Source: Patescibacteria group bacterium
GTDB taxonomy: Bacteria > Patescibacteriota > Patescibacteriia > UM-FILTER-42-10
Length of the DNA: 64,000 nt
Direction: 5' to 3'
Assembly: GCA_041666845.1 (NCBI GenBank)
Contig: JBAYGC010000004.1
Location: 7,965 to 71,964, forward strand
Positions 8,937 through 35,553 of the stretch are shown here, piece after piece; positions within the stretch are counted from its first letter, which is position 1, and each line of letters opens with the position of its first letter. The notes beneath the pieces were generated by a model. The model ran no database searches and was not told the origin of the DNA. It saw only the letters and a list, made by a program, of their open reading frames with translations. The translations under genes were made by a program, and so were the position numbers.

Positions 8937-9043
8937 TTTGGTAAGAAACACCCGCAAGCGCGAATTGCATTTACTATTCAAAAAAATAATGGTTGATTTT
9001 TTTGTCCAGATGTGTTACAATAAGCATATTAATCACCCAAACA

Positions 9044-12409: not shown

Positions 12410-12599
12410 CCCCTGTTAATTAACCTGCTAAAAGTAGGTCTAAGGCAGGCAGTTTTATTGGATTGCGTTAGTCAAATAAAACAGCGTGCTTTTGCACATA
12501 GTTGCCCATTCGAAAACAATTGAGGAGTAATCCTCATAACAATACATTCGCTGCGTGAGCACGTGGCGAAGCAGGATCCCCCAAGCCAAGGAGTTCGTG

Positions 12600-13247
12600 A
12601 TGGAAATGGGACAGATGATCCAAATGATCTTTTCCGCGATTCCCGACGGTACCACCCGCGTGTCCTTGCTTGGTCGGCATTCGCTGTCCGTGCAGGACGG
12701 GCCCAACGACACCCGCGCGCTCTCGCCCAAGGGCATCGAACTCTGTCACGAGGTGCGTGGTTTCTACGCTCATCTCGTCCTGAATCTGGAACTCATCGGC
12801 AACGCCTCCTACTACTATTCCCAGATGGCACGTTCACTCATAACCATCCGGGAGATTCTGCTTCCGCGTAACTTCATCCTGGATGAACGACTGAACCTGC
12901 TGGCCAGCCTGAAGAAGATACAGGGCGGCGCCTGGTTCAAGGCGCAGAAGGACACCGGGCATTCCGATGTGGAGATTATCCGCGCCTTCCTGACCGATTC
13001 CAGCATCGGCGCCGGCCAGCCGTTCAAGCAGAACGCCGCGAACTACCTGGCCTGGGCTACCGAACCATACGGCCACCGTCTGCGAGTCGCTTTCGCACAT
13101 GAGGTGGCCTGTTCCCTGGCGGCCCACCCCTATCTCGACTCCGATGTCGAACCCGGCCTGTCCGAATGTCAGGCCTACCTGTTCTGCGTGGACGACTCGG
13201 GCAATGTCCTGCGCGTGATCAAGGTCACCCCTCCGGCTACCCTGTAG
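12600..13247 (+). CDS. GC-rich ORF of unknown function, cassette paralog 2 (215 aa)
   Basis: Same ribosome-binding-site context (AAGGAGttcgtgATG). About 60% aa identity to 8214..8867, with an identical C-terminus and 3' UTR. Confidence 0.7.
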   Translation: MEMGQMIQMIFSAIPDGTTRVSLLGRHSLSVQDGPNDTRALSPKGIELCHEVRGFYAHLVLNLELIGNASYYYSQMARSLITIREILLPRNFILDERLNLLASLKKIQGGAWFKAQKDTGHSDVEIIRAFLTDSSIGAGQPFKQNAANYLAWATEPYGHRLRVAFAHEVACSLAAHPYLDSDVEPGLSECQAYLFCVDDSGNVLRVIKVTPPATL

Positions 13248-15883: not shown

Positions 15884-16013
15884 GATACAATAATATGTTT
15901 AGTGCTTTATTAAATTGGCTGTAGCTTTTCATTAAGATAATTAACTTAATTTGGGATTTTTTGTTCATAGTTTGTTACTCGTTAGGAATATGAAGCTTTA
16001 GCTCCATTTGTAT

Positions 16014-17540: not shown

Positions 17541-17561
17541 ATTATTAAATACATAATCATA

Positions 17562-19028
17562 CTATTTATTCAACTTTTTTATAATTCCCCTATTCGCGTC
17601 CACTTCCACCAGATCGCCATCTTTTAATACTCTAGTAGCAACCTTTGTCCCAATTACACAGGGGACCTTCAATTCCCTAGCTACAATAGCGGCGTGACAA
17701 GTAATACCGCCAGAGTCAGTGATTATTGCACCGGCTTTTTGCATAGCAGGAACGACTTGAGGATTTGTGGATGTTGATACAAGTATATCTCCTTTTTTCA
17801 TTTTCGGTAGATCTAATACCTCGTCAATCCGTTTAACCACACCTTTTACTAAACCCGGATAAGCAGTATTTCCGTAAAGTACTTTGATTTTTGGATCAAC
17901 ACATAACGAACGTGAGATATCTTGAGAGATCCGCTTCACATTATTACCAGAAAGCACTTGATAATCAGTGCCTTTAAATAATACTACCGATTCCCTAATT
18001 CGTTCGTTCATTAATTCGGCACTGATATTGTTTTTCAGCAAGGCATCTTTCATTTCCTTTGGTGAAATCATGGATGCCTGGACTCTGGACAAATGATTTC
18101 TTTTGGCCAATTCTTGAATAAAATCATCCATTAGTAAGTGGGCCTTCTGGTTTAAGAATTTCCGTTCGAATTTCCAAAACCCCAGAGTTCGTAAAGCATG
18201 GATAACTCTTTTTTCCTGAACATTTAACCCAAGTTCCTGTTCCATGTTCTCCTGTTTTTTTGATAACCTATTTGCCGACTTGCCTTTTACAGCTAGCAGC
18301 TCCGTAACTGTCACTTTCTTGGCAGGAAGCAGGCTGAGCCGCTGTCGGATATCTTTTACTCCCCAAGCTGGTCCGTTATAACCATAACCGATCCAAGCGT
18401 ATTTCTTAAGATGATCAGCAACATCTTTTTTTGATAACTCATATCTCAGTTGTTTAAGCCGTAGCTTCAGCAAAGCCTTTTCCTCACGCAATATCACAGT
18501 TTCTCGGGGGGAAGAAGACAAAAGTTGAAAATATTCCCCGATTTTCTCATTACCTTTCCCTAATTTCCGACTAATGATCTGTTCCACTCGGTTGCTCAAA
18601 AGAGGTATTTCCATTTCAGCTGCGGTCGCCATTACACTATAAGTCATCATAGAAATAAATTTTTTCAGCCAATCCTGCCAGCGTGCTCTAAGTTCTTGAC
18701 CGCTCAATGCCGATAAATCACCTGAAAGCTTTTCTGCTGCTTCAAGCATCATCGGTACTTCTTTTTTATTTACTAACTCAATTTTTTTTAGCAAAATATC
18801 ATTTTGCTCTAGACGCTCTAGAATCTTTCTTCCAGGAACGGCTAAAGATCCTTCATTTGTTAGATAACTGAACGAGTTATCCTTATACCAACAGCCAATA
18901 ATACCATCCTCCACACCCACCTTTTTTGCTGCATATTGCGCACACCACCAGTACAGCATGGTGGGATAAAGATAAGCATTTTTATCATGGGCCAGTTCAA
19001 GCCATTTCTTTTGATATTGAATACTCAT
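17562..19028 (-). CDS. PEP-utilizing mobile domain protein, paralog 3
   Basis: C-terminal GGITCHAAIVARELKVPCVIG and AYPGLVKGVVKRI…GDILVSTSTNP. Confidence 0.8.
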   Translation of the reverse strand: MSIQYQKKWLELAHDKNAYLYPTMLYWWCAQYAAKKVGVEDGIIGCWYKDNSFSYLTNEGSLAVPGRKILERLEQNDILLKKIELVNKKEVPMMLEAAEKLSGDLSALSGQELRARWQDWLKKFISMMTYSVMATAAEMEIPLLSNRVEQIISRKLGKGNEKIGEYFQLLSSSPRETVILREEKALLKLRLKQLRYELSKKDVADHLKKYAWIGYGYNGPAWGVKDIRQRLSLLPAKKVTVTELLAVKGKSANRLSKKQENMEQELGLNVQEKRVIHALRTLGFWKFERKFLNQKAHLLMDDFIQELAKRNHLSRVQASMISPKEMKDALLKNNISAELMNERIRESVVLFKGTDYQVLSGNNVKRISQDISRSLCVDPKIKVLYGNTAYPGLVKGVVKRIDEVLDLPKMKKGDILVSTSTNPQVVPAMQKAGAIITDSGGITCHAAIVARELKVPCVIGTKVATRVLKDGDLVEVDANRGIIKKLNK

Positions 19029-19029
19029 A

Positions 19030-20508
19030 CTAGTTAATAATCTTTATATCCCCTTTTCTAGTATCCAGCTCTACCAAATCGCCGTCCTTTAGAACTTTTG
19101 TGGCAATCTTAGCACCGATAATACAAGGCTTTTTCATTTCTCGGGCAACAATGGCCGCATGTGAAGTCAATCCGCCTACATCCGTGACAAATGCCGCGGC
19201 TCTTTTCATTGCCGGCAGGAGCGAGGGGGTAGTAGCAACCGATACTAAGATATCACCATTTTTCACTTTAGCCATTTTTGATGCTTCATTTACGATTTTT
19301 ACTTTTCCCTTGGCGTAACCGGCTGAAGCTACTGTCCCATGAATAACAAAAACCTGCTGTATCTTTTGTTTTTCTCTTTTTACATTTTGTCTGACATAGT
19401 CTCTGGCCTTTTTGCCGGTAAAAATTATCTGCCGATCCTCGCTTAGCGCAATCCAAACACAATATTTACTTCGCTCCTGCAATACTTCCAGTGGAACCGC
19501 CTTTCTTGCTTTCAGCCAGTTAACTAGCTCTGACTTTGAACAATAATACAGCAATTTTTTCGGTACCTTAAACCTCCTTGATGCTACGGAAAGAATCTTT
19601 TCCCATTGAGAATATACACCGAATAATATTTCCATACGCAATCCCTTTAGATAAGTAAATGTCTGGGCAACATTGAAGAGATATTTTTCTTGATCATTTA
19701 GACCGAGCTTCTCAAACGTGGCAAGCTGTTTTTTCCGAAGCACAGTAGCATAAGTAAGCAGATCATTCAATTCTTTCTTTGCTTTCTTTTTATTTTTAAC
19801 CAGCTCTTTAATAGAAAGCTCCACTTCTTCAAATGCCATACGGGGACCAAGTTGTCCGAAACTTACCCAGTTCCATTTCTTGTAATAATTACCGACCTTC
19901 CTTTCCTCAACATTTCTTCCGGCAGTATTGACAATCATCTGCATGAGTTCAATTCTGGCTGTCTTTGAGGGTATAGGTCTTACTGGAGAAGAAAGTGTAT
20001 TCACTGTTTCAGGAATTGACACAGACTTCTTATTCTTCTCCACCGCCCTTTTTACTATTTTTTTTAGTAAGTGGGAATATTTTTGGAAATAGTGATCAGA
20101 AAACACCGGCACATAACCCCAAATACAAAGGTCATTAGCCAGTTTATAAGTTTTTTGTAAATAATTTGCCAACTGATGATTAGCCCATTGTTCCGGGTCA
20201 TCGTTTTCCACATCTCGGATTGATTTCAATAGAACTTTCGCTATATCCTCTGATTCTTTACGAACTCTTTCTACAAACCCAGGATTCTCCTGAATTTTAC
20301 CAATCAAGAAATCCGACCCCTTATCCCACGCAACATAGTCAACATAAAACAGAAGCTTTTGCTTTTCGTGTTCACAAAAAGTTCTCTCACCTACTTTACG
20401 GCCGTCCAATAGCTTCATCAATAGATTGCTCGGCCAAGCATTATGATTGGGTGAAATAGTTAGTGGACTTATGGAATATTCTTCGTGTGATAATACGTAT
20501 CTTTTCAT
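19030..20508 (-). CDS. PEP-utilizing mobile domain protein, paralog 4
   Basis: C-terminal GGLTSHAAIVAREMKKPCIIG. Its stop is 1 nt from the start of paralog 3. Confidence 0.8.
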   Translation of the reverse strand: MKRYVLSHEEYSISPLTISPNHNAWPSNLLMKLLDGRKVGERTFCEHEKQKLLFYVDYVAWDKGSDFLIGKIQENPGFVERVRKESEDIAKVLLKSIRDVENDDPEQWANHQLANYLQKTYKLANDLCIWGYVPVFSDHYFQKYSHLLKKIVKRAVEKNKKSVSIPETVNTLSSPVRPIPSKTARIELMQMIVNTAGRNVEERKVGNYYKKWNWVSFGQLGPRMAFEEVELSIKELVKNKKKAKKELNDLLTYATVLRKKQLATFEKLGLNDQEKYLFNVAQTFTYLKGLRMEILFGVYSQWEKILSVASRRFKVPKKLLYYCSKSELVNWLKARKAVPLEVLQERSKYCVWIALSEDRQIIFTGKKARDYVRQNVKREKQKIQQVFVIHGTVASAGYAKGKVKIVNEASKMAKVKNGDILVSVATTPSLLPAMKRAAAFVTDVGGLTSHAAIVAREMKKPCIIGAKIATKVLKDGDLVELDTRKGDIKIIN

Positions 20509-20553
20509 ATTTTTTCCCGTGAAGATGTTCTAAATATATCACATGTTGATTAA

Positions 20554-21627
20554 TTATAATTTTCTCACTATTCCTTTATTCGCGTCTACTTCCACCAGAA
20601 CACCGTCTCTAAAAACTTTCGTCGCAACTTTAGTCCCTACAATACAGGGCTTCTTCAATTCTCTTGCGGTAATAGCAGCATGAGACAGCAATCCACCGGA
20701 ATCAGTAATAAAACCGCCCGCCTTCTTCATTAAGGGCAAATACTCCGGCCTGGTCATGCTGGCAACTAAAATATCCCCTTTAGTGAAAGAAGTGATATTT
20801 TTCGGGTCATGAACAATTCTGACATGCCCGACGATTTTCCCCCTTTGTGCTACAGTTCCGTGGAGAACTTCAAATGACTGAACCTTATTAAGAATTGCCT
20901 CAACTTGCTTAAATTGGCGCCCGATAAAATGAATATTCTTATTGGTATTTGCAAACACAGCAAATCCAGGGTTGCGCTTCTGCAGTATCAATTTTGAAGG
21001 AAGTGGTTTGCCGTTCAGATAATCCTCAATTTCCTGGTATGTGCAACATAAGACTAATGATTGCGGCAATTTTTCTTTTTTTCCAATTTGTTTTGCCATA
21101 TTTTCCAGAAACTCTTCGGTTTCAGTCAGCACTGTTTCAGCATACACCCTGGCTTTCTCAAGTAATACAAAATATCTTTTAATCTGATTTTCAGACAATC
21201 CATCGACTATATATTTTACATTAATATGCGGCTGATAATATGCCACCAGCTTCTGAAAATATTCTTCAAATATTTTTGCAGTAAATATCGAACGGCTGTG
21301 AGTGCGAAGAAATTTCCTGATATGGTCCGACTGTTTTTTCAAATTATTGCAGATCTGAATTACACGCTTTGGATTACGGTTTACTTCATCAGCCAAATAG
21401 TGACAGAATTCCTCCCGATCTCTCTGTCGTGCCCATCCTTGGCTTTTTCCATTTTTTACTACTATTACAGTTTCGGGTAAGAAAGGTCTTCCGCGGAACC
21501 TGATCAAGCTGACATATTCCACTGCAAAGTGACTGCAGGAGAAAAGACTCCATTTTCCGGCCCAAATCTGTAACCAGTCCGGTCGGTTCAGTTCATCGGG
21601 TTTTATTTGGACAGTCTTTTTCATCAA
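20554..21627 (-). CDS. PEP-utilizing mobile domain protein, paralog 5 (shorter N-domain)
   Basis: C-terminal GGLLSHAAITARELKKPCIVG. 357 aa. Overlaps paralog 6 by 4 nt. Confidence 0.75.
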   Translation of the reverse strand: MMKKTVQIKPDELNRPDWLQIWAGKWSLFSCSHFAVEYVSLIRFRGRPFLPETVIVVKNGKSQGWARQRDREEFCHYLADEVNRNPKRVIQICNNLKKQSDHIRKFLRTHSRSIFTAKIFEEYFQKLVAYYQPHINVKYIVDGLSENQIKRYFVLLEKARVYAETVLTETEEFLENMAKQIGKKEKLPQSLVLCCTYQEIEDYLNGKPLPSKLILQKRNPGFAVFANTNKNIHFIGRQFKQVEAILNKVQSFEVLHGTVAQRGKIVGHVRIVHDPKNITSFTKGDILVASMTRPEYLPLMKKAGGFITDSGGLLSHAAITARELKKPCIVGTKVATKVFRDGVLVEVDANKGIVRKL

Positions 21628-23249
21628 ATTTTCCTTACTATTCCCTTCGTTGCGTCTACTTCCACTAAATCCCCGTCTTTAAATACTTTGGTGGCAATTT
21701 TTGTGCCGATAACACAAGGGATACCTAGTTCGCGTGATATGATTGCAGCATGGGAAGTTACCCCACCTTGTTCCGTAACAATGGCGGAGGCTTTTTTCAT
21801 TGCCGGTACTATATCCGGATCTGTAGCTATTGATACCAGTACATCACCATTTTTCATTTTATTCATATCTGACGATCTGATAATCAACTTTACTGCGCCC
21901 CTGCCCCTGCCGACACATCCGCATTGTCCCTGTACTTCTGTTATTTCATTATCAATTGCTATTTTAGTTTTTTCGGCCATTTTTTTTGCTTCGTTGCCGA
22001 CAAATACCTTTTCAATTCCCTTCTCGGCATAATACACACAATATTTTGTTCTTTTCTGCAACGCTTTTTTATCCGGTTTCTTTCCCCCGATTAACGCATC
22101 CCCGATTTCTGATTTTAGCATAAATCTTACCTGCATTAATGAAATATCCAGTCGCCTAGCTATTTCTTCCAATACCGGCTGCATATTATAGATTGCATAA
22201 ATCTGGGCAAACCGTCGATAAATCTTGGTTATCATGAAATCAGCCCAACTGGTGAATATTGTTTTCCACGGATTTTTTATCTTTAGTTTTTTGATTAATG
22301 TATTTCTTTTTATAATCAGATTCTTGTGCTCATTGATTTCATCTTTCAATAATTCTACTACATTTATGCCTTCACCAATCAGTTTTACAAGTTCCTTAAG
22401 ATAATAGTCAAAAGTGTAAATACCGTCCTTACCGATCCACATAAACTTCACGTAATGATATTTAATATAATGTTGCTCAATTAGTTTTAGTATCTCCATC
22501 TTAATCTGATCTTTCATCTCCGCTACTTTCTTTTCGAATGCAGCTTCATATTCCGGCGTATGTGTTTCCAGGCCATAGGGTGAAACATTATACTCTAAAA
22601 ATTCCTGATACAGTTCCCGGAACAGTTTTTTGTGATAAGAATCTTTCTGAATTTTTGACGCGATTGTCAAGAACTCCTCGCGCTCAATCTGAATTAGTGA
22701 TTTTTTTTCAGGTACAGTCAGTGTTACTAAATATTCATTAATCTTTTCTTTTCTGACCCCGATTGACTTCAAATATTTTTTAAGCTCTTCAGTAAAGTCG
22801 TTATGAAACATGTCGGCTGCTACCGGCAACCAGCCCCATTGGTAATATTTTGTGTGGATTTCATCATGCCTTTGATAAAAGAACCAAAGTTGCTTTTTGG
22901 TAAGTTTTTCCAAATTTTCCTGGGGAAGATTATGCGCAAAATAACGCAGTTTATCAGACCATTTTACAATTTCTTCATTTACCTCCACCGTAAATTGAGG
23001 ATTTTTGACAAATTTTTCAACCAAATGTTTTCCTTGCTTAAAAGAATCATCTTCTCCGAAATAGAACCACAGATGATATCCTTTATAGATCGCCATTACT
23101 TTTTCGTTGGCAAATCCACCCGGTTTGACAAATTCGTTGGCAAAACAGGAAAGCCAAATTTGCGAAAAAAACAGATCAATATCCGGTATGTCTTCAGCCA
23201 ACATCCATGAGTCTTGGCTATTTAAATGCTTCAATCTTCTTTTTGACAT
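21624..23249 (-). CDS. PEP-utilizing mobile domain protein, paralog 6
   Basis: C-terminal GGVTSHAAIISRELGIPCVIG and GRGAVKLII…GDVLVSIATDP. Confidence 0.8.
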   Translation of the reverse strand: MSKRRLKHLNSQDSWMLAEDIPDIDLFFSQIWLSCFANEFVKPGGFANEKVMAIYKGYHLWFYFGEDDSFKQGKHLVEKFVKNPQFTVEVNEEIVKWSDKLRYFAHNLPQENLEKLTKKQLWFFYQRHDEIHTKYYQWGWLPVAADMFHNDFTEELKKYLKSIGVRKEKINEYLVTLTVPEKKSLIQIEREEFLTIASKIQKDSYHKKLFRELYQEFLEYNVSPYGLETHTPEYEAAFEKKVAEMKDQIKMEILKLIEQHYIKYHYVKFMWIGKDGIYTFDYYLKELVKLIGEGINVVELLKDEINEHKNLIIKRNTLIKKLKIKNPWKTIFTSWADFMITKIYRRFAQIYAIYNMQPVLEEIARRLDISLMQVRFMLKSEIGDALIGGKKPDKKALQKRTKYCVYYAEKGIEKVFVGNEAKKMAEKTKIAIDNEITEVQGQCGCVGRGRGAVKLIIRSSDMNKMKNGDVLVSIATDPDIVPAMKKASAIVTEQGGVTSHAAIISRELGIPCVIGTKIATKVFKDGDLVEVDATKGIVRKI

Positions 23250-28124: not shown

Positions 28125-28796
28125 TTATAGTTTTCTCGTTTTTTCAAAACCTTTTTTCCAATCCAAAAAATTCTTCCAGATATTCTTGTCTTTATGCCAA
28201 TTATCCCGATCCGCTTCATATGCCTGTTCCAATGCCCAAGCAATTTCGCTGAAAAATCCTATCTTTCTGAAATAATGGTCTCGGTTTTTTTTGTTAAAAA
28301 GTGCTTCGAACTTGATTTTACGCTTGCTAATCCATCCAGGATATTTTCCGCCGGTATCATCTAGAATAACAAGTACTTCTTGAATATTTAATTTTCCTTT
28401 GACATTCTTAATGAATATTTCCTTGCTTGCTCCAGTGGCAATTACATCATCAACCAAAACCGCTCTTGCACCTTTGCTATATGCTCCCTCAATCAAAGAA
28501 TCCGTGGAATAACCTTTAGTCTTTTTTCTAATGTAAACCCAAGGCAATTTTGTTTCCAAGGCTGTAGCGGCAGCTAAACTAATTCCACCAGTTGCCCCAC
28601 CGGCGATTACTTCAATCTTAGGTCTGATATTTCTAATAATTCTGGCAAATTCTTGTGCTACTGCCTTTAGTACAACTGGATCAGACAAAGCCGCTTTAGG
28701 ATCCCAATAAATCGGAACAATCCGGTCTGCTTGGATTTTAACACCAGGAACATAAAAACGCTTTTGGGCTAATATTTTGATTACCTCATTTTTCAT
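28125..28796 (-). CDS. Orotate-phosphoribosyltransferase-like type I PRTase, paralog 1, with W/K-rich C-terminal tail
   Basis: PRPP-binding motif AVLVDDVIATGAS. OPRT-like core (IAGGATGGISLAAATA…YIRKK…IEG). Tail DNWHKDKNIWKNFLDWKKGF. Confidence 0.75.
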   Translation of the reverse strand: MKNEVIKILAQKRFYVPGVKIQADRIVPIYWDPKAALSDPVVLKAVAQEFARIIRNIRPKIEVIAGGATGGISLAAATALETKLPWVYIRKKTKGYSTDSLIEGAYSKGARAVLVDDVIATGASKEIFIKNVKGKLNIQEVLVILDDTGGKYPGWISKRKIKFEALFNKKNRDHYFRKIGFFSEIAWALEQAYEADRDNWHKDKNIWKNFLDWKKGFEKTRKL

Positions 28797-29422
28797 TTTT
28801 TTATCCTACTTCCCCAGTTAATTGGATCTTTAAGATACTGTTTAATCGCTAAAGTATCTTCGAGATCAAAAATGTTGTGTTTAATACCAAAATTGGCAAT
28901 TTCTTGAAAAGTTACTAGATAGTGAATCTTTATTTTACTTGCTTTCTCGATTTTTTTTGCCAGTTCCTTTTTGACTATTGAAACTACTATAACATCTTCA
29001 ACTTTTGCCTTGTTTTTCCTAAGTACTTTGACGGCATTGTTAATATTGCTTCCAGTCACCATCATATCATCTATCAGTACCACTTTCTGGCCAGGCTTGA
29101 GAATCCCTTCAATTTGTTTTTTTGTACCATTTGTTTTTGGTTTTTTTCTGACGTAAATCATTGGTTTGACAAGTGCTCGGGCGAGAATACCGGCAAAAGC
29201 GATGCCTGCCGATTCATTTCCCGCAATTATATTATAATGCTTTGGCAGTAACCCCTTTAATTGATTAAAAACTATTGATAGTTCCTTGGGGTATGATAAT
29301 AGATTTCTATGGTCAAGATAAATAGGTTGATATAGCCCCGCTCCACCTAATAGCGGCTTTTTGTAATCACAATAAACATTTTGCGCCTTGTATAATGCCT
29401 TTATGATTTTTGGTTTGTTCAT
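28793..29422 (-). CDS. OPRT-like PRTase, paralog 2
   Basis: VVLIDDMMVTGSN PRPP motif. Overlaps neighbouring genes by 4 nt on both sides. Confidence 0.7.
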   Translation of the reverse strand: MNKPKIIKALYKAQNVYCDYKKPLLGGAGLYQPIYLDHRNLLSYPKELSIVFNQLKGLLPKHYNIIAGNESAGIAFAGILARALVKPMIYVRKKPKTNGTKKQIEGILKPGQKVVLIDDMMVTGSNINNAVKVLRKNKAKVEDVIVVSIVKKELAKKIEKASKIKIHYLVTFQEIANFGIKHNIFDLEDTLAIKQYLKDPINWGSRIKK

Positions 29423-30999
29423 AGCTTTTGGATTATCCCTCTTTCTGCATCAACCAATATTTTATCACCGTCGTTTAGTAATTTATCACAATCCGTCACG
29501 CCAACCACGCACGGTATTTTCATTTCTCTTGCCACGATTGCAGTATGACAAGTCAATCCACCCGCTCCTCCGATTAATGCTGATGCTTTTTTCATGGCCG
29601 GTACTAAATTCGGATTGGTATTGTGCGCTACCATAATATCCCCTTGCCGCATCTTCTTCATATCTGCCGGAATGTTTACTATCTTTACCACCCCATCAAC
29701 CCTGCCAGGATAGGCGCAAGTTCCAGAGAGTTGATTTTTGCTTTTTTTGGATTTTTCTATGCTTATGGTCTTCATGAATTTTTCCGCTTCACTCCCGGTT
29801 ATAACTCTATTGATATACCCCGCCTGTCCCTTGCGCTTCCAATAATCAACCGCCTTTTTAATCCTTTCATTCAGTATGTGAACATCCACTTTGCCAACTT
29901 TCAAAATGGTTATTATTTCACTCGGCTTTAAAGCCTGCATCTGGCTGATCGACAGTCCAAACCTTTTTCCTACCTCTTTAAAAATTTTCTCATAATAATA
30001 CATTGCGTTGTATAGTCCATCCTTCCGGTAACTCTTCATATAAACCATTCCCTGAGCCATCTTCAGAATATCTTTTTCATGTTCAGAAAATCCGATTTGA
30101 CTAATGAGCTTTTTCTGTTCTTTCAATAAATCATCTCGATCATTTTGTTTTTTACTTAACATTGCTTGTGGATTTTTCTTTCCACGCAATAATGCCTGCC
30201 AACGAGCCAAATAATCCTTCAACGGATAAGCCGGACCTTTATATTGATATGTTAATGGACTAAATTTTTGATAGTGTCTGATGATATCCTTATAAATTTG
30301 CCTATCAATCCTTTCTAAATTATTCATCAAACTTTGCAAACTAGACTGAATAAATACCTCCTTAAGCTTTCTTCTTCTAACGATTGCTGATGCAATTTTC
30401 AGAAAACTTTCTTCTTCTTTGTATAACAAACTACGTTTTGTTGGTGAGGTAAGAATTGAGAAAGCTATAGAAATACTATGTTTTAGATTAGTATTTTTCA
30501 ATTTTTTTACAAACATCTTCATAATCGCCTTAGTAACCAGCTGGTCCCCGGCATCGGATTGCCAAGTTACACCTAACGCATATCCATGACTAAGCATGTG
30601 AACATTTCTAATTTCTTTCATCAGTTTCGCAATTTGCATGTTACTCATGCTTGATAAATTCATTCTTTTCACTCTGTTCATTATCTTGAAGAATTCAGCA
30701 GTCGCTTCCTCAACATCTTTAATGATTTTTAAAGCCCATCTCGGTTTCTTTATTACCTTCTTTGCTAGGAATCCGCATTGCGCTTCAAATTCTTTCTGCA
30801 CAAAGATCATTTGAGAAGAATCACCATCAAAATAAGTAATATATTCCCGCGCAAAACTCCCCAATCCTTGTTTTGGGTACACAGAAAAAAATGCTTCACT
30901 TGGAATTTCCATCATGAAAATAGTATTCTGGGGGATATCTTCAACTACTTCCCATATTTTTTTACCAATTAACCCAGATTTCATGTTTTTCTTTTTCAT
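29419..30999 (-). CDS. PEP-utilizing mobile domain protein, paralog 7 (start trimmed to Met at 30999; ORF-track N-terminus runs through a tRNA)
   Basis: C-terminal GGLTCHTAIVAREMKIPCVVG and AYPGRVDGVVKIV…GDIMVAHNTNP. The N-domain shares the Y.YKGPAYP motif with the other paralogs. The upstream 183 nt of the tracked ORF overlap tRNA-Arg and are rejected. Confidence 0.75.
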   Translation of the reverse strand: MKKKNMKSGLIGKKIWEVVEDIPQNTIFMMEIPSEAFFSVYPKQGLGSFAREYITYFDGDSSQMIFVQKEFEAQCGFLAKKVIKKPRWALKIIKDVEEATAEFFKIMNRVKRMNLSSMSNMQIAKLMKEIRNVHMLSHGYALGVTWQSDAGDQLVTKAIMKMFVKKLKNTNLKHSISIAFSILTSPTKRSLLYKEEESFLKIASAIVRRRKLKEVFIQSSLQSLMNNLERIDRQIYKDIIRHYQKFSPLTYQYKGPAYPLKDYLARWQALLRGKKNPQAMLSKKQNDRDDLLKEQKKLISQIGFSEHEKDILKMAQGMVYMKSYRKDGLYNAMYYYEKIFKEVGKRFGLSISQMQALKPSEIITILKVGKVDVHILNERIKKAVDYWKRKGQAGYINRVITGSEAEKFMKTISIEKSKKSKNQLSGTCAYPGRVDGVVKIVNIPADMKKMRQGDIMVAHNTNPNLVPAMKKASALIGGAGGLTCHTAIVAREMKIPCVVGVTDCDKLLNDGDKILVDAERGIIQKL

Positions 31000-31005
31000 T
31001 CTAAT

Positions 31006-31080
31006 TGGTGCCCCCATGAGGAATCGAACCTCAATCTTAGGCTCCGGAAGCCCACATTCTATCCGTTGAACTACAGGGGC
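31006..31080 (-). tRNA. tRNA-Arg (anticodon CCG), CCA encoded
   Basis: The reverse complement reads GCCCCTG-TA-GTTC-AACGGATA-GAAT-G-TGGGC-TTCCGGA-GCCTA-AGAT-TGAGG-TTCGATT-CCTCA-TGGGGGC-A-CCA. This gives a cloverleaf with a 7-bp acceptor stem (two G-U pairs), U8, a GTTCGATTCC T-arm, U33 and anticodon CCG. Confidence 0.85.
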
Positions 31081-31234
31081 ATGTTGAAATATTAATCTAC
31101 TACTTGCCTTCCGAAGCTCAAATCTAATTTGAGCGAAAGAAGGAGCTACAGGCGCATTCTTGACGCAGCTTAATATTAACACGTTTATATATACTGGATC
31201 TATTGCCCGTCCGCTTTAATACTATTTTCAACTA

Positions 31235-31930
31235 CTATAACTCGTCTTTTTTAAGTGATTTTTTCCAAGCCAAAAACATCCGCCAACTCTTTTTATCTTT
31301 ATGCCAGCCGGTAGGATCAGCCAAATAAGCTTTCTGGACAGTTATTGCTTCAACAGGCAGTTTTTTAGCTTTCCTCACATAGTCAAGCCATTCGTGGCGG
31401 TTATAAAGATTATCAAAAGTAATTCCCATTTTCTGTAATCGTTTTTTAAAATTCTGATTCCTTGCATGCCAAGAATCATTGATTACCACCACGTGCTTCA
31501 CCCTAATCCCGTCCTTAGCGCAATCCTGAATCGCTTTCAATACCGTACTCCCTAAACCGATTACATCGTCTACTAAAACCCCAACGGAATTCTTTTGGTA
31601 GTCCCCTTCCACCCATTTTTTTCGCAAGGTAGGCTTTCTCTTTTTGTTTAAATAGGCAAAGGGAATTCTGGTTTTTAGACTGGTTGCCAAAGCAATGGGA
31701 ATGCCAGCCATAGGAATACCCACGATTAAATCTACTCTTTTCTTTCGATTGTATTTATTAATAATCTTCCCCAATTCCTCCGCGATTATCTCCATTACCT
31801 CAGGATGTGAGTAAAGGCATCTACTGTCATTAAAGAAAGGTACAATCGCTCCAGTAGTCGACTGTCTGAAGGGACCGACCGAGATTTTCATTTTGGCTAC
31901 TGCATTTAATACTCGTTTATTCTCGCTCAT
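31235..31930 (-). CDS. OPRT-like PRTase, paralog 3, W-rich tail
   Basis: GVLVDDVIGLGST. Tail GWHKDKKSWRMFLAWKK. Confidence 0.7.
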   Translation of the reverse strand: MSENKRVLNAVAKMKISVGPFRQSTTGAIVPFFNDSRCLYSHPEVMEIIAEELGKIINKYNRKKRVDLIVGIPMAGIPIALATSLKTRIPFAYLNKKRKPTLRKKWVEGDYQKNSVGVLVDDVIGLGSTVLKAIQDCAKDGIRVKHVVVINDSWHARNQNFKKRLQKMGITFDNLYNRHEWLDYVRKAKKLPVEAITVQKAYLADPTGWHKDKKSWRMFLAWKKSLKKDEL

Positions 31931-32631
31931 ATCTTATCAAAACTTTCATCAAAAATTAAGTTCTTTTCTACTACACCTAATTGTTTGAATTCCTTCCAAT
32001 TTTTGGGATCCTTTTGCCAGCCGAAAGGATCGTCAAGCATTTTGATAATGAGTCTGCAAAAATCCTTTTCTAGAAATTTCTGATCTGCAGCATATTTCAT
32101 TATACCCGGCCAAGTTATTAGTGCGATAAATTTATATTTTCTACTCTTTCGGAGCCAATTTTGTGCCTTGCGGTATTTGAGTCCGTAAAATGCATCCATA
32201 ATCACGATAATACCCTTAACCTTCAAACCAGCTGCTTCTAATGTTTTAACTATCTCCTTCTTATCACCACCAGTAGACATAGCATCATCCACTATTACCA
32301 CACTCTGACCCTTATGATACATGCCCTCGATAACGTTATTTGTATTGTACCCCTTCGGTTTTTTTCTCAGATAAAGAAAGTCTCTTTTTAGAGTACTGGC
32401 TACCGCTACACCGAAAGGCACCCCTGCGGCTTCCCGGCTGGCGATTAAATCCGATTTTATAGTCGCCGCTGCTTTTGCCAGTTCTTGGGTCAGTATGCTA
32501 AAAACCCTGTTTCGGGAAAAAGCATTACGATGATCGGGATATAGGGGAAAATGTCCGATACGCGGACTTATAAAATTCCCAGCAATAAAATATCCTTTGA
32601 ATAACAATGCTTTTGCCGCCCGTTTATTCAT
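31927..32631 (-). CDS. OPRT-like PRTase, paralog 4, W-rich tail
   Basis: VVIVDDAMSTGGD. Tail GWQKDPKNWKEFKQLG. Confidence 0.7.
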   Translation of the reverse strand: MNKRAAKALLFKGYFIAGNFISPRIGHFPLYPDHRNAFSRNRVFSILTQELAKAAATIKSDLIASREAAGVPFGVAVASTLKRDFLYLRKKPKGYNTNNVIEGMYHKGQSVVIVDDAMSTGGDKKEIVKTLEAAGLKVKGIIVIMDAFYGLKYRKAQNWLRKSRKYKFIALITWPGIMKYAADQKFLEKDFCRLIIKMLDDPFGWQKDPKNWKEFKQLGVVEKNLIFDESFDKI

Positions 32632-32697
32632 ATAATTATCCTGAAATTAGCTACTTAGCAAGTTTTTCCTGCAATGAACCCACAGGATAAATTTACT

Positions 32698-33372
32698 CTA
32701 TTTAGCTGAATCAGTAAAACCTTCAGATTTTGCCAGTGAAACAAATTCGTTCCACTTTTTATTATCTTTCTGCCATATCTTCAAATTCTTCCATATATCA
32801 AACATATAATCACCGAGTTTCTTCGAGATATATCCGTTCTTAACCATGTATTTGACCAGATCATTATGTTTTACGAATGAGTGAATTCTTATTTTATTCT
32901 TTGCATAAAATGGTATGTACTCCACACCAGCATCATAAAGTACCAAAACGTCTTTTACAACCAGACCTTTTCTCTGTAATGTCTTAATGAAGCGTTCTTT
33001 GGTACTGCCGGTCCCGATTCCATCATCAACTACCAAGACATTCTCACCTTTTCTATACAACCCTTCCAGTAAAGTCGCTGTCGAACCGTCTTTGCGCGTT
33101 TTCTGCCGGAGATAAATAAAAGGTTTGTGTGAAGCAAGCGATACGGCCATAGCTAGAGGTGTGCCTGATACCATCGTGCCTGCTACCAGATCAATATTTT
33201 TTCCCTTCATAAAATTAGCAATTTCTTCTGACACAACTTTCATTTTATCCGGGTGGGAATAAAGACGCTTGCTGGTAATATAAATCGGAGATGGTTCGCC
33301 CAGTGAGCCGTAAAACTTGCCAAAAACAAAAAAACCAAAGTCACTCAGTAGCTTGGCGATACGTTTATTCAT
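32698..33372 (-). CDS. OPRT-like PRTase, paralog 5, W-rich tail (start taken at MNKRIAKLL, as in the other paralogs)
   Basis: VLVVDDGIGTGST. Tail IWQKDNKKWNEFVSLAK. The ORF track extends 11 codons further upstream, to 33405. Confidence 0.7.
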   Translation of the reverse strand: MNKRIAKLLSDFGFFVFGKFYGSLGEPSPIYITSKRLYSHPDKMKVVSEEIANFMKGKNIDLVAGTMVSGTPLAMAVSLASHKPFIYLRQKTRKDGSTATLLEGLYRKGENVLVVDDGIGTGSTKERFIKTLQRKGLVVKDVLVLYDAGVEYIPFYAKNKIRIHSFVKHNDLVKYMVKNGYISKKLGDYMFDIWKNLKIWQKDNKKWNEFVSLAKSEGFTDSAK

Positions 33373-33516
33373 AAAAACAATTAGTATTAATACATTAGAT
33401 AGCAACTACTATCATAACGGATTTTCCAAAATTTGAAAACCCCATAACCTACTATCTTCTACGCTTGGTATTTGAATTCGGGAATTAACTCCCACACTTG
33501 ATACTAAGTGTAGAAG

Positions 33517-33545
33517 TTGACAAAAATGGGAAATAGGTGTATAGT
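33517..33545 (+). promoter_or_regulatory. Consensus-like sigma70 promoter (TTGACA-17-TATAGT) for the GC-rich island 3 operon
   Basis: TTGACA at 33517-33522 and TATAGT at 33540-33545. Confidence 0.5.
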
Positions 33546-33561
33546 TGCCTGTTAAAATTGA

Positions 33562-33582
33562 ATACTCTTGTTGGAAGAGTAT
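33562..33582. promoter_or_regulatory. Perfect 8-bp/5-nt-loop palindrome (atactctt gttgg aagagtat) just downstream of the -10; candidate operator
   Basis: Seen directly in the sequence. Positioned +17 to +37 relative to the -10 box. Confidence 0.4.
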
Positions 33583-33711
33583 AGACAGTCTGTTAAATGT
33601 GAAGTAATTCGTTTTCAGCAGAGTGCCTATTTTACTGGCACATTGACATAGAACACAACCAGTCCTGAAATACTGGCTGGCACAGAATCACCACTATCCC
33701 GGAGGTAGATA

Positions 33712-34299
33712 ATGACGAAGCGAGTCTTTATCCAGGGTGATCGCGATCCCAGTGTGGATCTCGCCGCATGCGCGCTGGAGATTGCTCAGCTCCTTAAGCA
33801 GAGGGGTTGGGAAGCGAACGTCGGCGCGTACGGCGGACTGGTTCGGATCTTCGAGGAGTCTGGCATGCGCTGCCATGCGCATGTTATAGCACCTCGCGGT
33901 AGAGAAGTCCAGTTCAGCGAACGAATCGTCGCATCGGTCACAGACTGCAACCAACTCGTTCGGTCTCTCCCGGCGGAGGTCCGCTGGGGAGGCGAAGCCG
34001 ACCAGATTCTCACCTGGGGTCTTCGTCTCGGCATCTGGATGGCTCATTCCGATGCCTTCATCTTCTTCGCCGGCCGGGAAGGTACGATGGCCCACCTTAT
34101 CCCGGTTCTCGCCTGGAACCGCAAGGTTCTGGCCAAAGAAGGGCGGGCCAAGAAGGTTGTCCTGTTCGGGTGGTTACGCAGTCAGATCAACGCCCTGCGG
34201 GCACTCGGTCTGTATTCGCCAGCCGATACGTGGCTGGCCTTCTACCCGGCCTTCCGCTGGAGCGAAGAGCTGACCGTCAACTTCCTCACCGAGGAGTGA
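33712..34299 (+). CDS. GC-rich LOG/SLOG-like (TIGR00730 / lysine-decarboxylase-like Rossmann) protein
   Basis: GGAGG ribosome-binding site 6 nt upstream. The motifs VGAYGGLVRIFEES and SDAFIFFAGREGTMAHLIPVLAW resemble the LOG-family GGGxGxMG and SDAFIALPGGxGTxEE…W motifs. About 60% GC on the plus strand within AT-rich surroundings. 195 aa. Confidence 0.4.
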   Translation: MTKRVFIQGDRDPSVDLAACALEIAQLLKQRGWEANVGAYGGLVRIFEESGMRCHAHVIAPRGREVQFSERIVASVTDCNQLVRSLPAEVRWGGEADQILTWGLRLGIWMAHSDAFIFFAGREGTMAHLIPVLAWNRKVLAKEGRAKKVVLFGWLRSQINALRALGLYSPADTWLAFYPAFRWSEELTVNFLTEE

Positions 34300-34303
34300 C
34301 AAC

Positions 34304-34435
34304 ATGGGCTTCATCAAGCCTGTCGCGCTCCTGCTTTCGCTGGTATGCCTGCTGGTAGCGACGAAGAACCATCGCAGTGATGGATCTCTCGCCACGATCG
34401 GCACCCTGCTCCTTATCGTTGGCGCAATGGCCTAA
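34304..34435 (+). CDS. 43-aa double-TM hydrophobic peptide co-transcribed with the SLOG-like gene
   Basis: GAGGAG ribosome-binding site 7 nt before ATG. MGFIKPVALLLSLVCLLVATKNHRSDGSLATIGTLLLIVGAMA has two hydrophobic segments. It is GC-rich and below the ORF-track size cutoff. Confidence 0.4.
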   Translation: MGFIKPVALLLSLVCLLVATKNHRSDGSLATIGTLLLIVGAMA

Positions 34436-34461
34436 AGCCTGGCGCCCCGCATCCTCTTCCC

Positions 34462-34514
34462 CCCCGCGCATCAAACTGATTAATTTCAGGGCGATGCGCG
34501 GGGTGTTTATTTTG
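34462..34514. terminator. Large inverted repeat (ccccgcgcatc … gatgcgcgggg, 11-bp stems, 20-nt loop) + T-rich tract; bidirectional terminator
   Basis: Seen directly in the sequence. It closes the GC-rich island and abuts the stop of the convergent kinase gene. Confidence 0.45.
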
Positions 34515-35553
34515 TCAAAATACTTGCATACCAATCGGCCGTTTTGTTTTTACTTCTGGTTATTAAAGCCAATCCGGTTTCTCTGATTTTTGCCTCCAAT
34601 CGTGGCCGGTTTTTGTAATATGATCCAGACCGGCCGTCGGTTCTGGAGACCATATATATCCCGGTCCAGACGGTAGTTCGTTTGATGACCCCCTTAATTT
34701 CATGAGCGGATATACCAAAAGATTTCATTGTTTTAACGTATGCTTTTATAAAATTTTTGATAAAATATCGGCAATCTTTGGATACTGCTACTTTTTCTTC
34801 CAGTATTTTTATTAGCCAATGTGCTAAAAAAATTCCATTATCGAGGGCTGGGTCATTTTCCATGGCAAAATCAAAATCCAAAACAGAAAAGCCATGCTTG
34901 CTGACAAAAATATTTCTGTATACTGGATCACCCCAAACAAAAGATTTCTTTGCTCTATCAGAATTTTTAACAAATTTTTTGATTGCTTCTTCTTTAATTA
35001 ATTTTTTAGCACCGAACATAACCCAATCCCGCCATATGAAATTTACTTTATTTTGATTGGAAATATTACTAAATAGCAGAGGCATGTTGTAGGTTCTCCC
35101 GTGCATCTTTCCAAAAAAATTACCAAACTCTTCTGCTAACTGCGGTTGCACTTTGTCTCTATTAAATTCTTCAATTAGTATTTTCTTTTTTCCTTGGATA
35201 TCATCCAACACTAAAATATAGTTGTGATAATCAACATGCAAAACTTGTGGTACGATCTTTTTCCCGATTAGTGACTCTAAAAATTTCAATTTCCTACCTT
35301 CAATTACAGTTCTTGCCGGATTTATTCGAATCTTTCGGTCTCTTTTTACATACCCATCAGACTGCTTCAAGTATAATATTTTCTTACCTTGATTAGTAAG
35401 ACATTCTGCTCGATAAACAAAAAATGCATTTGAATATTTTGTTATTTCGGTAACATTTATTACCTTTTTTATTTCAAAAATGAATCCATCTACCGCCTTG
35501 GCATTCAAATATCCAGCAATATTTTTTTCAGATAAGATTGTCCTTTTATTCAT
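34507..35553 (-). CDS. Aminoglycoside-phosphotransferase/choline-kinase-fold (APH / MTR-kinase-like) small-molecule kinase
   Basis: Catalytic-loop-like VWGDPVYRNIFV (HGDxxxxN analogue) and VLDFDFAMENDPALDNG (DFE motif). 348 aa. Confidence 0.55.
   Translation of the reverse strand: MNKRTILSEKNIAGYLNAKAVDGFIFEIKKVINVTEITKYSNAFFVYRAECLTNQGKKILYLKQSDGYVKRDRKIRINPARTVIEGRKLKFLESLIGKKIVPQVLHVDYHNYILVLDDIQGKKKILIEEFNRDKVQPQLAEEFGNFFGKMHGRTYNMPLLFSNISNQNKVNFIWRDWVMFGAKKLIKEEAIKKFVKNSDRAKKSFVWGDPVYRNIFVSKHGFSVLDFDFAMENDPALDNGIFLAHWLIKILEEKVAVSKDCRYFIKNFIKAYVKTMKSFGISAHEIKGVIKRTTVWTGIYMVSRTDGRSGSYYKNRPRLEAKIRETGLALITRSKNKTADWYASILTK

Follow-up and report, generated by a model that had tools for sequence, protein, structure and literature searches.

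The window analyzed here, a 64,000-nt stretch from a Patescibacteria group bacterium, carries a short plus-strand island between an array of phosphoribosyltransferase (PRTase) genes and the gene of an APH-like kinase; the neighbours of the island are PRTases, the kinase and PEP-utiliser proteins. As listed in Table 1, we predict that the island forms a self-contained expression unit with a strong sigma-70 promoter, a structured leader of ~165 nt, two genes and an intrinsic terminator. The gene for a 43-aa membrane peptide would be translationally coupled to the preceding gene for a 195-aa protein, and its ribosome-binding site falls within the final codons of that gene; the equivalent position in the orthologous locus L004 reads AAGGAAGG. 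We do not regard a 133-aa antisense ORF at 33694-34095 as a gene, because GC3-rich sequence is expected to hold long antisense ORFs and because the substitutions follow the sense frame.

Table 1. Features of the island and its flanks, with positions in the window
Feature	Position	Strand	Basis or remark
Five PRTase genes	28125-29422 and 31235-33405		beside the island
Sigma-70-type promoter, TTGACA-17-TATAGT	33517..33545	+	11 of 12 consensus positions
P1, the "operator palindrome", 8-bp stem and 5-nt loop	33562..33582	+	near the 5' end of the predicted transcript
P2, long leader hairpin, then conserved AUUUUAC(U)GGC	33583..33629	+	RNAalifold
Conserved leader hairpin CCAGUCC...GGCUGG	33659..33680	+	three-sequence consensus fold
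Ribosome-binding site GGAGG of the 195-aa ORF	33701-33705	+	read from the sequence, 6 nt 5' of the ATG; kept in L001 and L004
195-aa protein, predicted SLOG-superfamily member	33712..34299	+	AlphaFold/AF2, Foldseek and profile matches
Ribosome-binding site GAGGAG of the 43-aa ORF	34291-34296	+	read from the sequence, 7 nt 5' of the second ATG
43-aa ORF, two hydrophobic segments (residues 6-20 and 29-43) and polar loop K-N-H-R-(S/G)-D-G	34304..34435	+	
Intrinsic terminator, long G+C-rich hairpin, then UGUUUAUUUUG	34462..34515	+	inverted repeat I1
APH-like kinase gene	34507-35553		downstream of the island

An earlier note on this DNA had described a plus-strand island of ~60% GC with GGAGG and GAGGAG ribosome-binding sites, lying between a PRTase array and an APH-like kinase. 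Our GC scan and reading of the sequence bear out this description, so that the observation of the island is confirmed, while its interpretation is partly supported. Scanned in steps of 100-nt windows, the GC content was 0.56-0.63 between ~33,700 and 34,500 and 0.28-0.45 on both flanks, compared with 0.60 for the block overall and 0.41 for the whole window. GC3 was 0.70 for the 195-aa ORF and likewise 0.70 for the 43-aa ORF; in the window's remaining 41 long ORFs, it averaged 0.381 (sd 0.048, max 0.48). The rise is limited to the two coding sequences and the terminator, and begins at the ribosome-binding site, whereas the promoter and the ~165-nt leader (33406-33700) are AT-rich, as is the rest of the genome. 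The extent of 33406-34514 given earlier for the island thus holds for the coding part and the terminator, and not for the promoter and leader. The GC-rich anomaly is common to two other lineage-specific genes of the window.

The 195-aa protein had been read as a LOG/SLOG-like protein, and structure prediction agrees with this fold. The AF2 model reached a pLDDT of 85.3 and a pTM of 0.84, and its best Foldseek matches in the PDB were YgdH, LOG, MoCo carrier protein and DprA, with E-values down to 1.6e-6. The top 30 matches were LOG-type or MoCo carrier proteins; 59 matches had E <= 1e-3, and among the matches listed all were SLOG members (LOG/YgdH, MCP, DprA, TT1465/TT1887). Sequence profiles pointed in the same direction. 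LOG chains were matched weakly but consistently, with E = 0.26 for the single sequence and E = 3.4e-4 for a 45-sequence profile, and PF03641 was matched at 12.1 bits (gathering cut-off, 27) and, weakly, by 20 of the 45 relatives (best E, 3.5e-5). No Pfam or NCBIfam model scored above threshold for the 195-aa protein, and there was no NCBIfam match. Designer pentatricopeptide repeats, which stood atop the 45-sequence profile search of the PDB, were discarded as spurious, being the sum of weak repeats on a helix-strand segment; the same artefact accounts for two very long proteins. In the gene, differences between codon positions followed the order 3rd > 1st > 2nd. The model and these matches indicate that the product is a member of the SLOG (SMF/DprA/LOG) Rossmannoid superfamily, in a small unclassified family closest to LOG/YgdH.

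The residues depart from LOG at the expected catalytic site. The family signature comprises F-[VI]-Q-G-D-R, G38xxG41, W102-G-x-R105, FF-(P/A)-G-R-E-G-T-x-A-H128 and G153-W154. The PGGxGTxxE motif anticipated in the earlier note was not found, and its place is taken by AGREGTMAH in the window protein and PGREGTxAH in the family. In CgLOG, the catalytic Glu is Glu122, and Arg99 is the catalytic, ribose-binding Arg (PMC4979012). In three independent alignments, the catalytic Arg of LOG corresponded to R105 and its catalytic Glu to H128; in 2a33 and 9us2, the residue opposite R105 is the Arg of the LOG "RK". Arg stands at this position in 42 of 45 relatives. At the position of the catalytic Glu, we counted His in 36 of 45 sequences, Gln in six, and D, G and L in one each, with Glu in none. 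The glycine loops are retained (G9 in 43/45, G38 in 41/45, G41 in 44/45, G121 in 42/45, G124 in 40/45 and T125 in 43/45), and conserved charged residues that are new relative to LOG occur at D10-R11 and R122-E123. Because the catalytic Glu is replaced by His, LOG-type hydrolysis cannot simply be assumed for this protein.

With 58 clusters among 1.84 billion representatives, the family is small; a scan of genome contigs with the protein alignment returned the L001 contig only. In the 12 distinct loci examined, it always lies inside PRTase gene arrays of Patescibacteria: OPRT-like PRTase genes surround the SLOG gene in all 12 loci with flanking sequence, which answers positively the question, raised earlier, of whether homologues co-occur with such arrays. 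Usually the SLOG gene is on the strand opposite to the array and has its own TTGACA-17-TATAAT promoter, and an APH-like kinase often follows downstream. L004 and L030 also have PRPP synthase and NAPRTase genes in the vicinity, and L005 has PfkB kinases. The array of L023 also holds a canonical LOG (PGQVGTLDE, 31.9 bits), so the two proteins of that array probably differ in what they do. Between loci, the identities of the SLOG protein and the neighbouring kinase were 79/70, 64/62, 46/51 and 34/36%, that is, one tracks the other, and therefore the genes are co-inherited. As a separate observation, the SLOG gene stays GC3-rich over deeply diverged loci though its co-inherited neighbours are AT-rich.

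We considered whether the island might be foreign DNA, taken up recently as a cassette from a GC-rich organism and functionally unconnected to the genes around it. A GC3 of 0.70 against 0.38, the use of CTC, CTG, GCC and CGC codons as in GC-rich genomes, and the opposite orientation of the gene, which has a promoter and a terminator of its own, would all suit such an origin. However, the gene recurs together with its neighbourhood in 12 distinct loci whose SLOG proteins are only 24-79% identical, its divergence follows that of the kinase, and the GC rise leaves the promoter and leader untouched. Moreover, GC3 is high in 10 of the 12 loci, at 0.60-0.72 in genomes of 0.36-0.49 GC, and therefore the bias has been maintained in the family for long and is not a recent import. 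Taken together, recent import is very unlikely.

The consensus promoter claimed for the island holds beyond the window. It matches all 12 consensus positions (TTGACA-17-TATAAT) in the orthologous loci L001, L004, L026 and L030, reads TTGACA-17-TATAGT or TATACT in L005, L023 and L006, and was kept in each locus that we read. Downstream of it, the P1 arms ATACTCTT (33562-33569) and AAGAGTAT (33575-33582) make a perfect inverted repeat (100% complementary), which folds as RNA with -8.4 kcal/mol (z = -2.7). Counted from the predicted transcript start, P1 spans about +10 to +31, within the transcribed leader. L001 retains the stem with another sequence (ATTCTCT/AGAGAAT), and L004 retains just 4 bp. 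Because the sequence shifts between loci and the symmetry stays, P1 appears to be a better fit to an RNA hairpin than to a protein operator. The palindrome of the "operator palindrome" proposed earlier is real, and it behaves like an RNA hairpin.

The remainder of the leader also has predicted structure. For P2, RNAalifold on four leaders (window, L001, L004 and L026) predicted 22 pairs, 6 of them with compensatory changes; the 12-bp outer stem was 87.5% paired with 4 compensatory pairs, versus 31-52% when the partner was slid. These values are only suggestive of a conserved structure, given four sequences of which three are close. The CCAGUCC...GGCUGG hairpin is followed by an invariant AAUCACCAC and then the ribosome-binding site. 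In conservation, the leader roughly equals the coding sequence: its identity to L004 is 0.72-0.74, and that of its 3' half, over all three pairs of loci, is 0.77-0.85. The fold of the complete leader gave z = -1.1. A recent recombination tract was considered as the source of the high conservation between the window and L004 leaders, since the adjacent PRTase shows 94% protein identity. We dropped this idea because the nucleotide identity of the PRTase gene is just ~0.82 between the two, with many synonymous changes; this PRTase is simply a well-conserved orthologue. Rfam gave no match to the leader (33546-33711) at gathering scores and none of any meaning at E <= 10; on the whole window, and in a permissive search on the island, it returned only the tRNA and two chance-level matches. 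An exact 19-mer of the leader hit 15 stretches in metagenome contigs, of which 13 were chance and two were known orthologous contigs, giving no evidence in the contigs scanned that the leader precedes other genes. At the other end of the unit, the terminator folds with -31.3 kcal/mol (z = -2.8), and its hairpin is retained in L001 and L004 despite altered stem bases.

The second ORF behaves differently from the first across loci. On the Kyte-Doolittle scale, the two hydrophobic segments of the 43-aa peptide average 2.0-2.95 and its loop -2.6. In L001 and L004 the ORF has identical length and frame; its second codon position is the least variable (4-6 differences versus 7-13 elsewhere), with a dN/dS of only 0.31-0.79. 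Its conservation in homologous loci, which the earlier note had made a condition of its reading, is limited to the three genomes that are closest, where protein identity is 60% or more. In 7 of the 9 other distinct loci, the downstream gap of 55-112 nt is too short for it. L030 and L031 have longer gaps, both of 381 nt; in that of L030, nothing hydrophobic was seen among the ORFs of at least 25 aa read by eye, and the absence of the peptide was thus read in 8 of the 9 distant loci. A homologue search with the peptide found only itself, and Pfam gave no significant match. The peptide thus looks like a recent local add-on rather than a general partner, and may serve this lineage as an accessory outside the core mechanism, for instance as a membrane tether or modulator.

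This distribution bears on the sensor/effector or toxin-like dyad suggested earlier, in which the SLOG protein would sense a nucleotide signal and the 43-aa peptide would damage the membrane as effector or toxin. The peptide is indeed hydrophobic, with two helices and a predicted translational coupling to the SLOG gene, and conflict systems based on nucleotide signalling do have SLOG domains as sensors (Burroughs et al. 2015, as cited in PMC6459960). Nevertheless, a partner confined to the three closest genomes does not fit a dyad, there is no SMODS/CD-NTase, TIR, SLATT domain or other defence gene nearby, and the SLOG gene is passed on vertically, together with a metabolic array, rather than residing in a variable defence island. 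PADLOC found no match for the SLOG protein, the 43-aa peptide, the kinase or a 449-aa neighbour, and its defence-system models gave only weak generic PRTase matches among the neighbours. The sensor/effector or toxin reading is therefore unsupported, and we regard the dyad as highly improbable.

We propose instead that the LOG-like protein binds a 5-phosphoribosyl compound, likely cleaves or exchanges a base-ribose bond, and serves the PRTase array, a reading to which we assign a probability of about 0.5. The LOG loops for the 5'-phosphate (G9, G38xxG41, G121 and G124-T125) are kept, along with the ribose-contacting R105. Judging by fold and neighbourhood, the ligand would be a nucleoside 5'-monophosphate or a PRPP-like compound, as made or used by the surrounding OPRT-like PRTases, and the base-ribose bond would most likely be cleaved or exchanged by chemistry modified from that of LOG. 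The SLOG step could then be a separately controlled reverse or editing step for the base-salvage array; with a promoter and leader of its own and a direction of transcription opposite to that of the array, the gene would not be co-expressed with the PRTases.

Because the catalytic Glu is missing from every member, the 195-aa protein may not be a hydrolase at all. Within the SLOG superfamily, the MoCo carrier protein, DprA and YpsA are binders. In addition, a hydrolase beside PRTases would set up a futile cycle unless tightly regulated, which counts against the enzyme reading. The protein might thus be a non-catalytic sensor or carrier that binds a nucleotide or phosphoribosyl ligand and regulates or buffers the PRTase pathway, for example by protein-protein contact. 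Besides the loss of Glu in 45 of 45 members, the MoCo carrier proteins and DprA among the structural matches and the canonical LOG beside the family member in L023 speak for such a role. Pairs of YpsA-clade SLOG and PRTase genes have also been reported, with a proposed binding role and a nucleotide or NAD derivative as ligand (Brzozowski et al. 2019, PMC6459960). On the other hand, Arg105 is strictly conserved and His128, Asp10 and Arg11 are nearly invariant, which resembles an active site more than a simple binding pocket, and YpsA (2NX2) is missing from the 50 best Foldseek matches. His is able to stand in for Glu as a general base. We therefore consider a pure sensor or carrier possible but rather doubtful, and retain the LOG-like protein acting on a 5-phosphoribosyl compound as the preferred reading. 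That the family is a new enzyme class on the LOG scaffold, performing His-based phosphorolysis or base exchange on 5-phosphoribosyl nucleotides as a separately regulated counterpart of the PRTase array, with an undescribed structured leader RNA and selected GC-rich codons, seems unlikely.

Most nucleotide biosynthesis is missing from Patescibacteria (CPR), which rely on salvage, and, to our knowledge, little is known about their salvage enzymes and how these are controlled. What emerges from the present analysis is a small SLOG family, so far without annotation, in which the catalytic motif is altered and whose genes are locked into PRTase arrays. A soluble protein of 195 aa with a short list of candidate ligands is a concrete and cheap target for biochemistry. 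It is also a warning that the fold alone is insufficient for annotating genes of this family as LOG, cytokinin-activating or lysine-decarboxylase-like. The GC-rich coding anomaly may point to a gene-specific constraint on expression or RNA stability.

Among known systems, molybdenum cofactor carrier protein (MCP) offers a precedent for a non-catalytic SLOG binder and gave structural matches to the 195-aa protein at E ~2e-5 (2iz7, 2iz5 and 6y01); unlike the setting of MCP, the island has no Moco-related genes nearby, and its conserved Arg, His and Asp pattern differs. SLOG-SLATT and other nucleotide-signal conflict systems resemble the island in that a SLOG domain adjoins the gene for a protein with two TM helices. 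The partner here, however, a peptide of 43 aa, matches neither SLATT nor any other Pfam model and occurs in one small clade only, with no signal-generating enzyme nearby and no PADLOC match for the pair.

The closest relatives by structure are the LOG/YgdH (PpnN-type) nucleotide 5'-monophosphate phosphoribohydrolases (PF03641, "Lysine_decarbox"), which have the Rossmannoid SLOG fold in common with the 195-aa protein and are its top matches (9us2, 2a33, 5its, 5wq3 and 7w2i). Its phosphate loop G-x-x-G-T, the catalytic ribose-binding Arg and a size of ~190 aa are LOG-like. In contrast to LOG, PGGxGTxxE has become (P/A)G-R-E-G-T-x-A-H, 42 of 45 sequences have His or Gln in place of the catalytic Glu, and the phosphate-binding Ser of strand 1 (Ser19 in CgLOG) is replaced by the Asp of the new Q-G-D-R motif. 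Pfam scores the protein at 12 bits, with the cut-off at 27, and the genomic context is a PRTase array in Patescibacteria. In that context, the family resembles the YpsA clade, also of small SLOG-superfamily proteins with conserved adjacency to PRTase genes (12 of 12 distinct loci here). The two differ in that none of the 45 family members has a YpsA-type Pfam match, and in signature, GxD/E for YpsA versus QGDR and GREGTxAH here. Unlike the YpsA pairs, the present loci combine several OPRT-like PRTases in arrays with an APH-like kinase, and place the SLOG gene on the opposite strand.

No family model in Pfam, NCBIfam or PADLOC matched the protein encoded by the 195-aa ORF of island 3, the third GC-rich block of the window. 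When 5.8 billion proteins were searched by word index, five relatives emerged: the protein itself, present in a Patescibacteria MAG, and sequences with 77, 60, 44 and 38% identity. Among 1.84 billion cluster representatives, profile searching matched 58 clusters, 45 of them at E ≤ 1e-10. The family is therefore small. An AlphaFold2 model built from the alignment of these five sequences was confident (pLDDT 85.3, pTM 0.84), with strands alternating with helices. In Foldseek comparison of this predicted model with the PDB, the top matches all belonged to the SMF/DprA/LOG (SLOG) superfamily, led by Neisseria YgdH (E = 1.6e-6), followed by Arabidopsis LOG3, the Corynebacterium and Mycobacterium LOGs, and then MoCo carrier proteins and DprA. 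The sequence profiles were weak and agreed: the single sequence found 2a33 at E = 0.26, a 45-sequence profile found 9us2 at E = 3.4e-4, and 20 of the 45 family members gave sub-threshold matches to PF03641. Therefore, the LOG/SLOG-like fold called in the earlier note was correct, and the protein sits in a known superfamily. A role in a conflict system, suggested there from the SLOG domain, is highly improbable.

In CgLOG, phosphate is held by the PGGxGTxxE motif together with Ser19; Arg99 contacts the ribose and is proposed to form the catalytic pair with Glu122 (PMC4979012). Three independent alignments (against 2a33, 9us2 and a canonical LOG encoded in the related locus L023) placed F-F-A-G-R-E-G-T-M-A-H-L of the window protein on F/L-P-G-G-x-G-T-x-x-E-L of LOG, and R105 on the catalytic Arg. 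Among the 45 family members, R105 and G121 are each present in 42 and T125 in 43, G153-W154 is near-invariant, and R122-E123, at the x positions of the motif, occurs in about half. The Glu position carries His in 36/45 and Gln in 6/45, and the Ser19 position carries Asp in 29/45, within a family-specific F-[VI]-Q-G-D-R motif. The canonical LOG motif expected earlier was thus absent: AGREGTMAH replaces PGGxGTxxE, with His at the catalytic Glu position. To judge from these alignments, the phosphate-ribose cradle is retained and the chemistry-defining residue altered; the protein belongs to a SLOG family of its own and is not orthologous to LOG. The canonical LOG of L023 (3749-4378, −; PF03641, 31.9 bits) keeps the Glu in its motif PGQVGTLDE. 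Since it shares one phosphoribosyltransferase (PRTase) array with a divergent SLOG member, the roles of the two are probably not redundant.

Features of island 3 and its surroundings in the window
Feature	Coordinates	Strand	Remarks
Promoter	33517-33545	+	TTGACA-17-TATAGT; 11/12 positions agree with consensus
Inverted repeats	33456-33471/33501-33516; 33487-33499/33506-33518		13-16 nt; 85-88% complementary; abut −35 hexamer
Palindrome	33562-33582		perfect 8 bp
Ribosome-binding site, 195-aa ORF	33701-33705	+	GGAGG; proper spacing to start codon
195-aa ORF	33712-34299	+	GC3 0.70
Ribosome-binding site, 43-aa ORF	34291-34296	+	GAGGAG; proper spacing to start codon
43-aa ORF	34304-34435	+	GC3 0.70
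Terminator-type hairpin	34462-34515		long, G+C-rich; U-tract
APH-like kinase	34507-35553		weak methylthioribose-kinase and Bud32 similarity
Five OPRT-like PRTase genes	28125-29422; 31235-33405		best PDB matches orotate PRTases
Highly conserved PRTase	32698-33405	−	
tRNA-Arg(CCG)	31006-31080	−	inside PRTase/PEP-utiliser array
Seven PEP-utiliser paralogues and stand-alone PPDK_N protein	6877-7824; 14375-23249; 29419-31182	−	paralogues ~360-590 aa
Island 1 ORF	8211-8867	+	GC3 0.74
Island 2 ORF	12555-13247	+	GC3 0.77
Tandem small membrane proteins	8938-9366; 9382-9708	+	directly downstream of island 1

Island 3 is a real feature. In 100-nt windows, GC reaches 0.56-0.63 across ~33,700-34,500 vs 0.28-0.45 on either flank, the window overall being 0.415. 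The description of the island as GC-rich holds for the coding sequences and the terminator, to which the high GC is confined, but not for the promoter and the ~165-nt leader, which are AT-rich like the remaining genome. The consensus promoter, both ribosome-binding sites and the flanks, with the orotate-PRTase-like (OPRT-like) genes on one side and the APH-like kinase on the other, were all found as proposed.

GC3 is 0.381 ± 0.048, with a maximum of 0.48, over the window's 41 other long ORFs, so the 195-aa gene and the ORFs of islands 1 and 2 are extreme outliers. Across 12 loci (window, L001, L004, L005, L006, L023, L024, L025, L026, L029, L030 and L032, the L numbers denoting related loci with homologues of the gene), the SLOG-family gene has a GC3 of 0.60-0.72 in 10, vs 0.29-0.54 for its neighbours. 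Its codon choices are of the GC-rich-genome type, as a foreign cassette might have. However, pairwise identities of the SLOG protein track those of the adjoining kinase (79/70, 64/62, 46/51, 45/34 and 34/36%), indicating that the genes were inherited together. Given this co-inheritance with AT-rich neighbours, and the AT-rich promoter and leader directly abutting the gene, recent horizontal transfer does not account for the bias, and we regard the foreign-cassette reading as very unlikely. An antisense gene opposite the ORF was also rejected, because substitutions follow the sense frame. The bias is long-maintained and gene-specific; candidate causes are a repair or conversion process with a bias of its own and selection acting on how stable the mRNA is or how fast it is translated.

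Islands 1 and 2 repeat this layout, with TTGACA-17-TATAAT, an AT-rich leader (~190 nt) and a GC3-rich, lineage-specific ORF. They encode paralogous orphan proteins with only four homologues in 5.8 billion proteins; DNA identity between the two is 92-94% at the termini and in the sequence upstream. The proteins carry an LLGRHS motif, and their low-confidence AlphaFold2 model (pLDDT 69) weakly matched the histidine-phosphatase/PGAM family (E = 5e-5, TM 0.39). The tandem membrane proteins beside island 1 are paralogues with the common core GSLVGKITKVL(I/V)Y(S/T)ML(I/V)EMYSLGIVST and no Pfam match.

The palindrome had been taken for an operator. It lies within the transcribed leader, ~10-31 nt past the probable start of transcription; in L001 the sequence has changed (ATTCTCT/AGAGAAT) and the stem is kept, and in L004 only 4 bp are left. 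A stem kept despite a different sequence, at a position inside the transcript, is more in keeping with a hairpin at the 5' end of the RNA than with an operator bound by a protein. If a protein operator exists, the inverted repeats abutting the −35 hexamer are a more plausible site. Further downstream, a long leader hairpin is common to the window, L001, L004 and L026 (a 45%-identity locus), with 22 predicted pairs, 6 of them showing compensatory changes, and an outer 12-bp stem that is 87.5% paired vs 31-52% when the partner is slid. A conserved AUUUUAC(U)GGC follows it. The leader matched no Rfam family, its whole fold is not unusually stable (z = −1.1), and its identity to L004 (0.72-0.74) about equals that of the coding sequence. 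An exact-match metagenome scan with the leader motif found only the two orthologous contigs, and in more distant members of the family the leader is short (~75-90 nt). In the window sub-clade, the leader may plausibly be a structured regulatory element.

The 43-aa ORF (MGFIKPVALLLSLVCLLVATKNHRSDGSLATIGTLLLIVGAMA) recurs in the two closest lineages, L001 (MDFIKPLLLVVSLVCLLTAAKDHRGDGPLAKIGTLLLIVGAMA) and L004 (MRFVKPIVLVLALACLLISVKNHRGDGPFATIGTLLLFAGALA), and both share its length, frame, ribosome-binding site and terminator. Substitutions preserve hydrophobicity, codon position 2 is the least variable (4-6 differences vs 7-13 at the others), and the peptide has a basic loop joining two hydrophobic segments, all of which favour a translated peptide. 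Its dN/dS (0.31-0.79) does not support this strongly, and ORFs of this size are frequent in GC-rich DNA. A database search with the peptide matched nothing besides itself. Seven loci (L005, L006, L023, L024, L026, L029 and L032) have no room for the ORF, since just 55-112 nt, closed by a terminator, lie downstream of the gene. Of the two 381-nt gaps, in L030 and L031, that of L030 was inspected by eye for ORFs of at least 25 aa, and no hydrophobic ORF was seen. Although probably real, the peptide is a recent accessory restricted to a single small clade. Under the refuting condition set in the earlier note, a small ORF not conserved in homologous loci, the proposed sensor/effector dyad fails as a general property, and the 195-aa protein is neither a canonical LOG nor half of such a dyad.

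We read the neighbourhoods of 12 distinct loci besides the window, at 24-79% identity to its protein, counting L001 and L002, two assemblies of one place, as one. PRTase genes adjoin the SLOG-family gene in 12/12, often on both sides, so homologues do co-occur with PRTase arrays, and this synteny is conserved and informative. An APH-like kinase lies downstream in the window, L001, L004, L005, L026, L028, L030 and L031; close by are PRPP synthase or NAPRTase genes in L004 and L030, PfkB kinases in L005, and PEP-utiliser paralogues in L026 and the window. The gene is antiparallel to its neighbours in all distinct loci except L024, with its own TTGACA-17-TATA(A/G/C)T promoter and terminator in each locus examined for them.

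The arrays showed further features. The highly conserved PRTase is 94% identical in protein to L004 4736-5410 (nucleotide ~0.82), and the SLOG protein and kinase of the two loci are just 62-64% identical; constraint on this PRTase is much tighter than on the genes beside it. In L004, a GIY-YIG gene is inserted between it and the island. The PRTases of the block nearer the island (−) have a C-terminal extension outside the Pfam PRTase domain, with a recurring W-x-K-D-x-(K/P)-x-W-x-x-F (e.g., GWHKDKKSWRMF, GWQKDPKNWKEF and IWQKDNKKWNEF). Because the tRNA-Arg(CCG) overlaps the 5' end of the mechanically listed PEP-utiliser ORF 29419-31182, the real start of that ORF must be further downstream; CGG occurs five times in the GC-rich 195-aa gene. 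Each PEP-utiliser paralogue pairs a unique N-terminal region with a PEP-utilising mobile (swivel His) domain at its C-terminus, and the window encodes a separate stand-alone PPDK_N ATP-binding protein; the arrangement resembles a dikinase or phosphotransferase set that has been split and diversified. In L026 and L027, too, PRTases are adjoined by similar arrays.

As for function, the 195-aa protein combines the SLOG fold, the kept cradle and catalytic Arg, the Glu-to-His change and the strict PRTase-array context, and its gene, as read from promoter and terminator, is transcribed autonomously in the direction opposite to the array. On this basis, we infer that it would bind a 5-phosphoribosyl ligand related to the substrates or products of the PRTases. 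Our preferred reading, at about 0.5, is that it may cleave off or exchange the base through chemistry modified from that of LOG. A role as a non-catalytic sensor or carrier is possible but distinctly less probable. The YpsA clade provides a precedent for SLOG-PRTase coupling as such (PMC6459960), but the window family is not YpsA-like, either in structure or in motifs.
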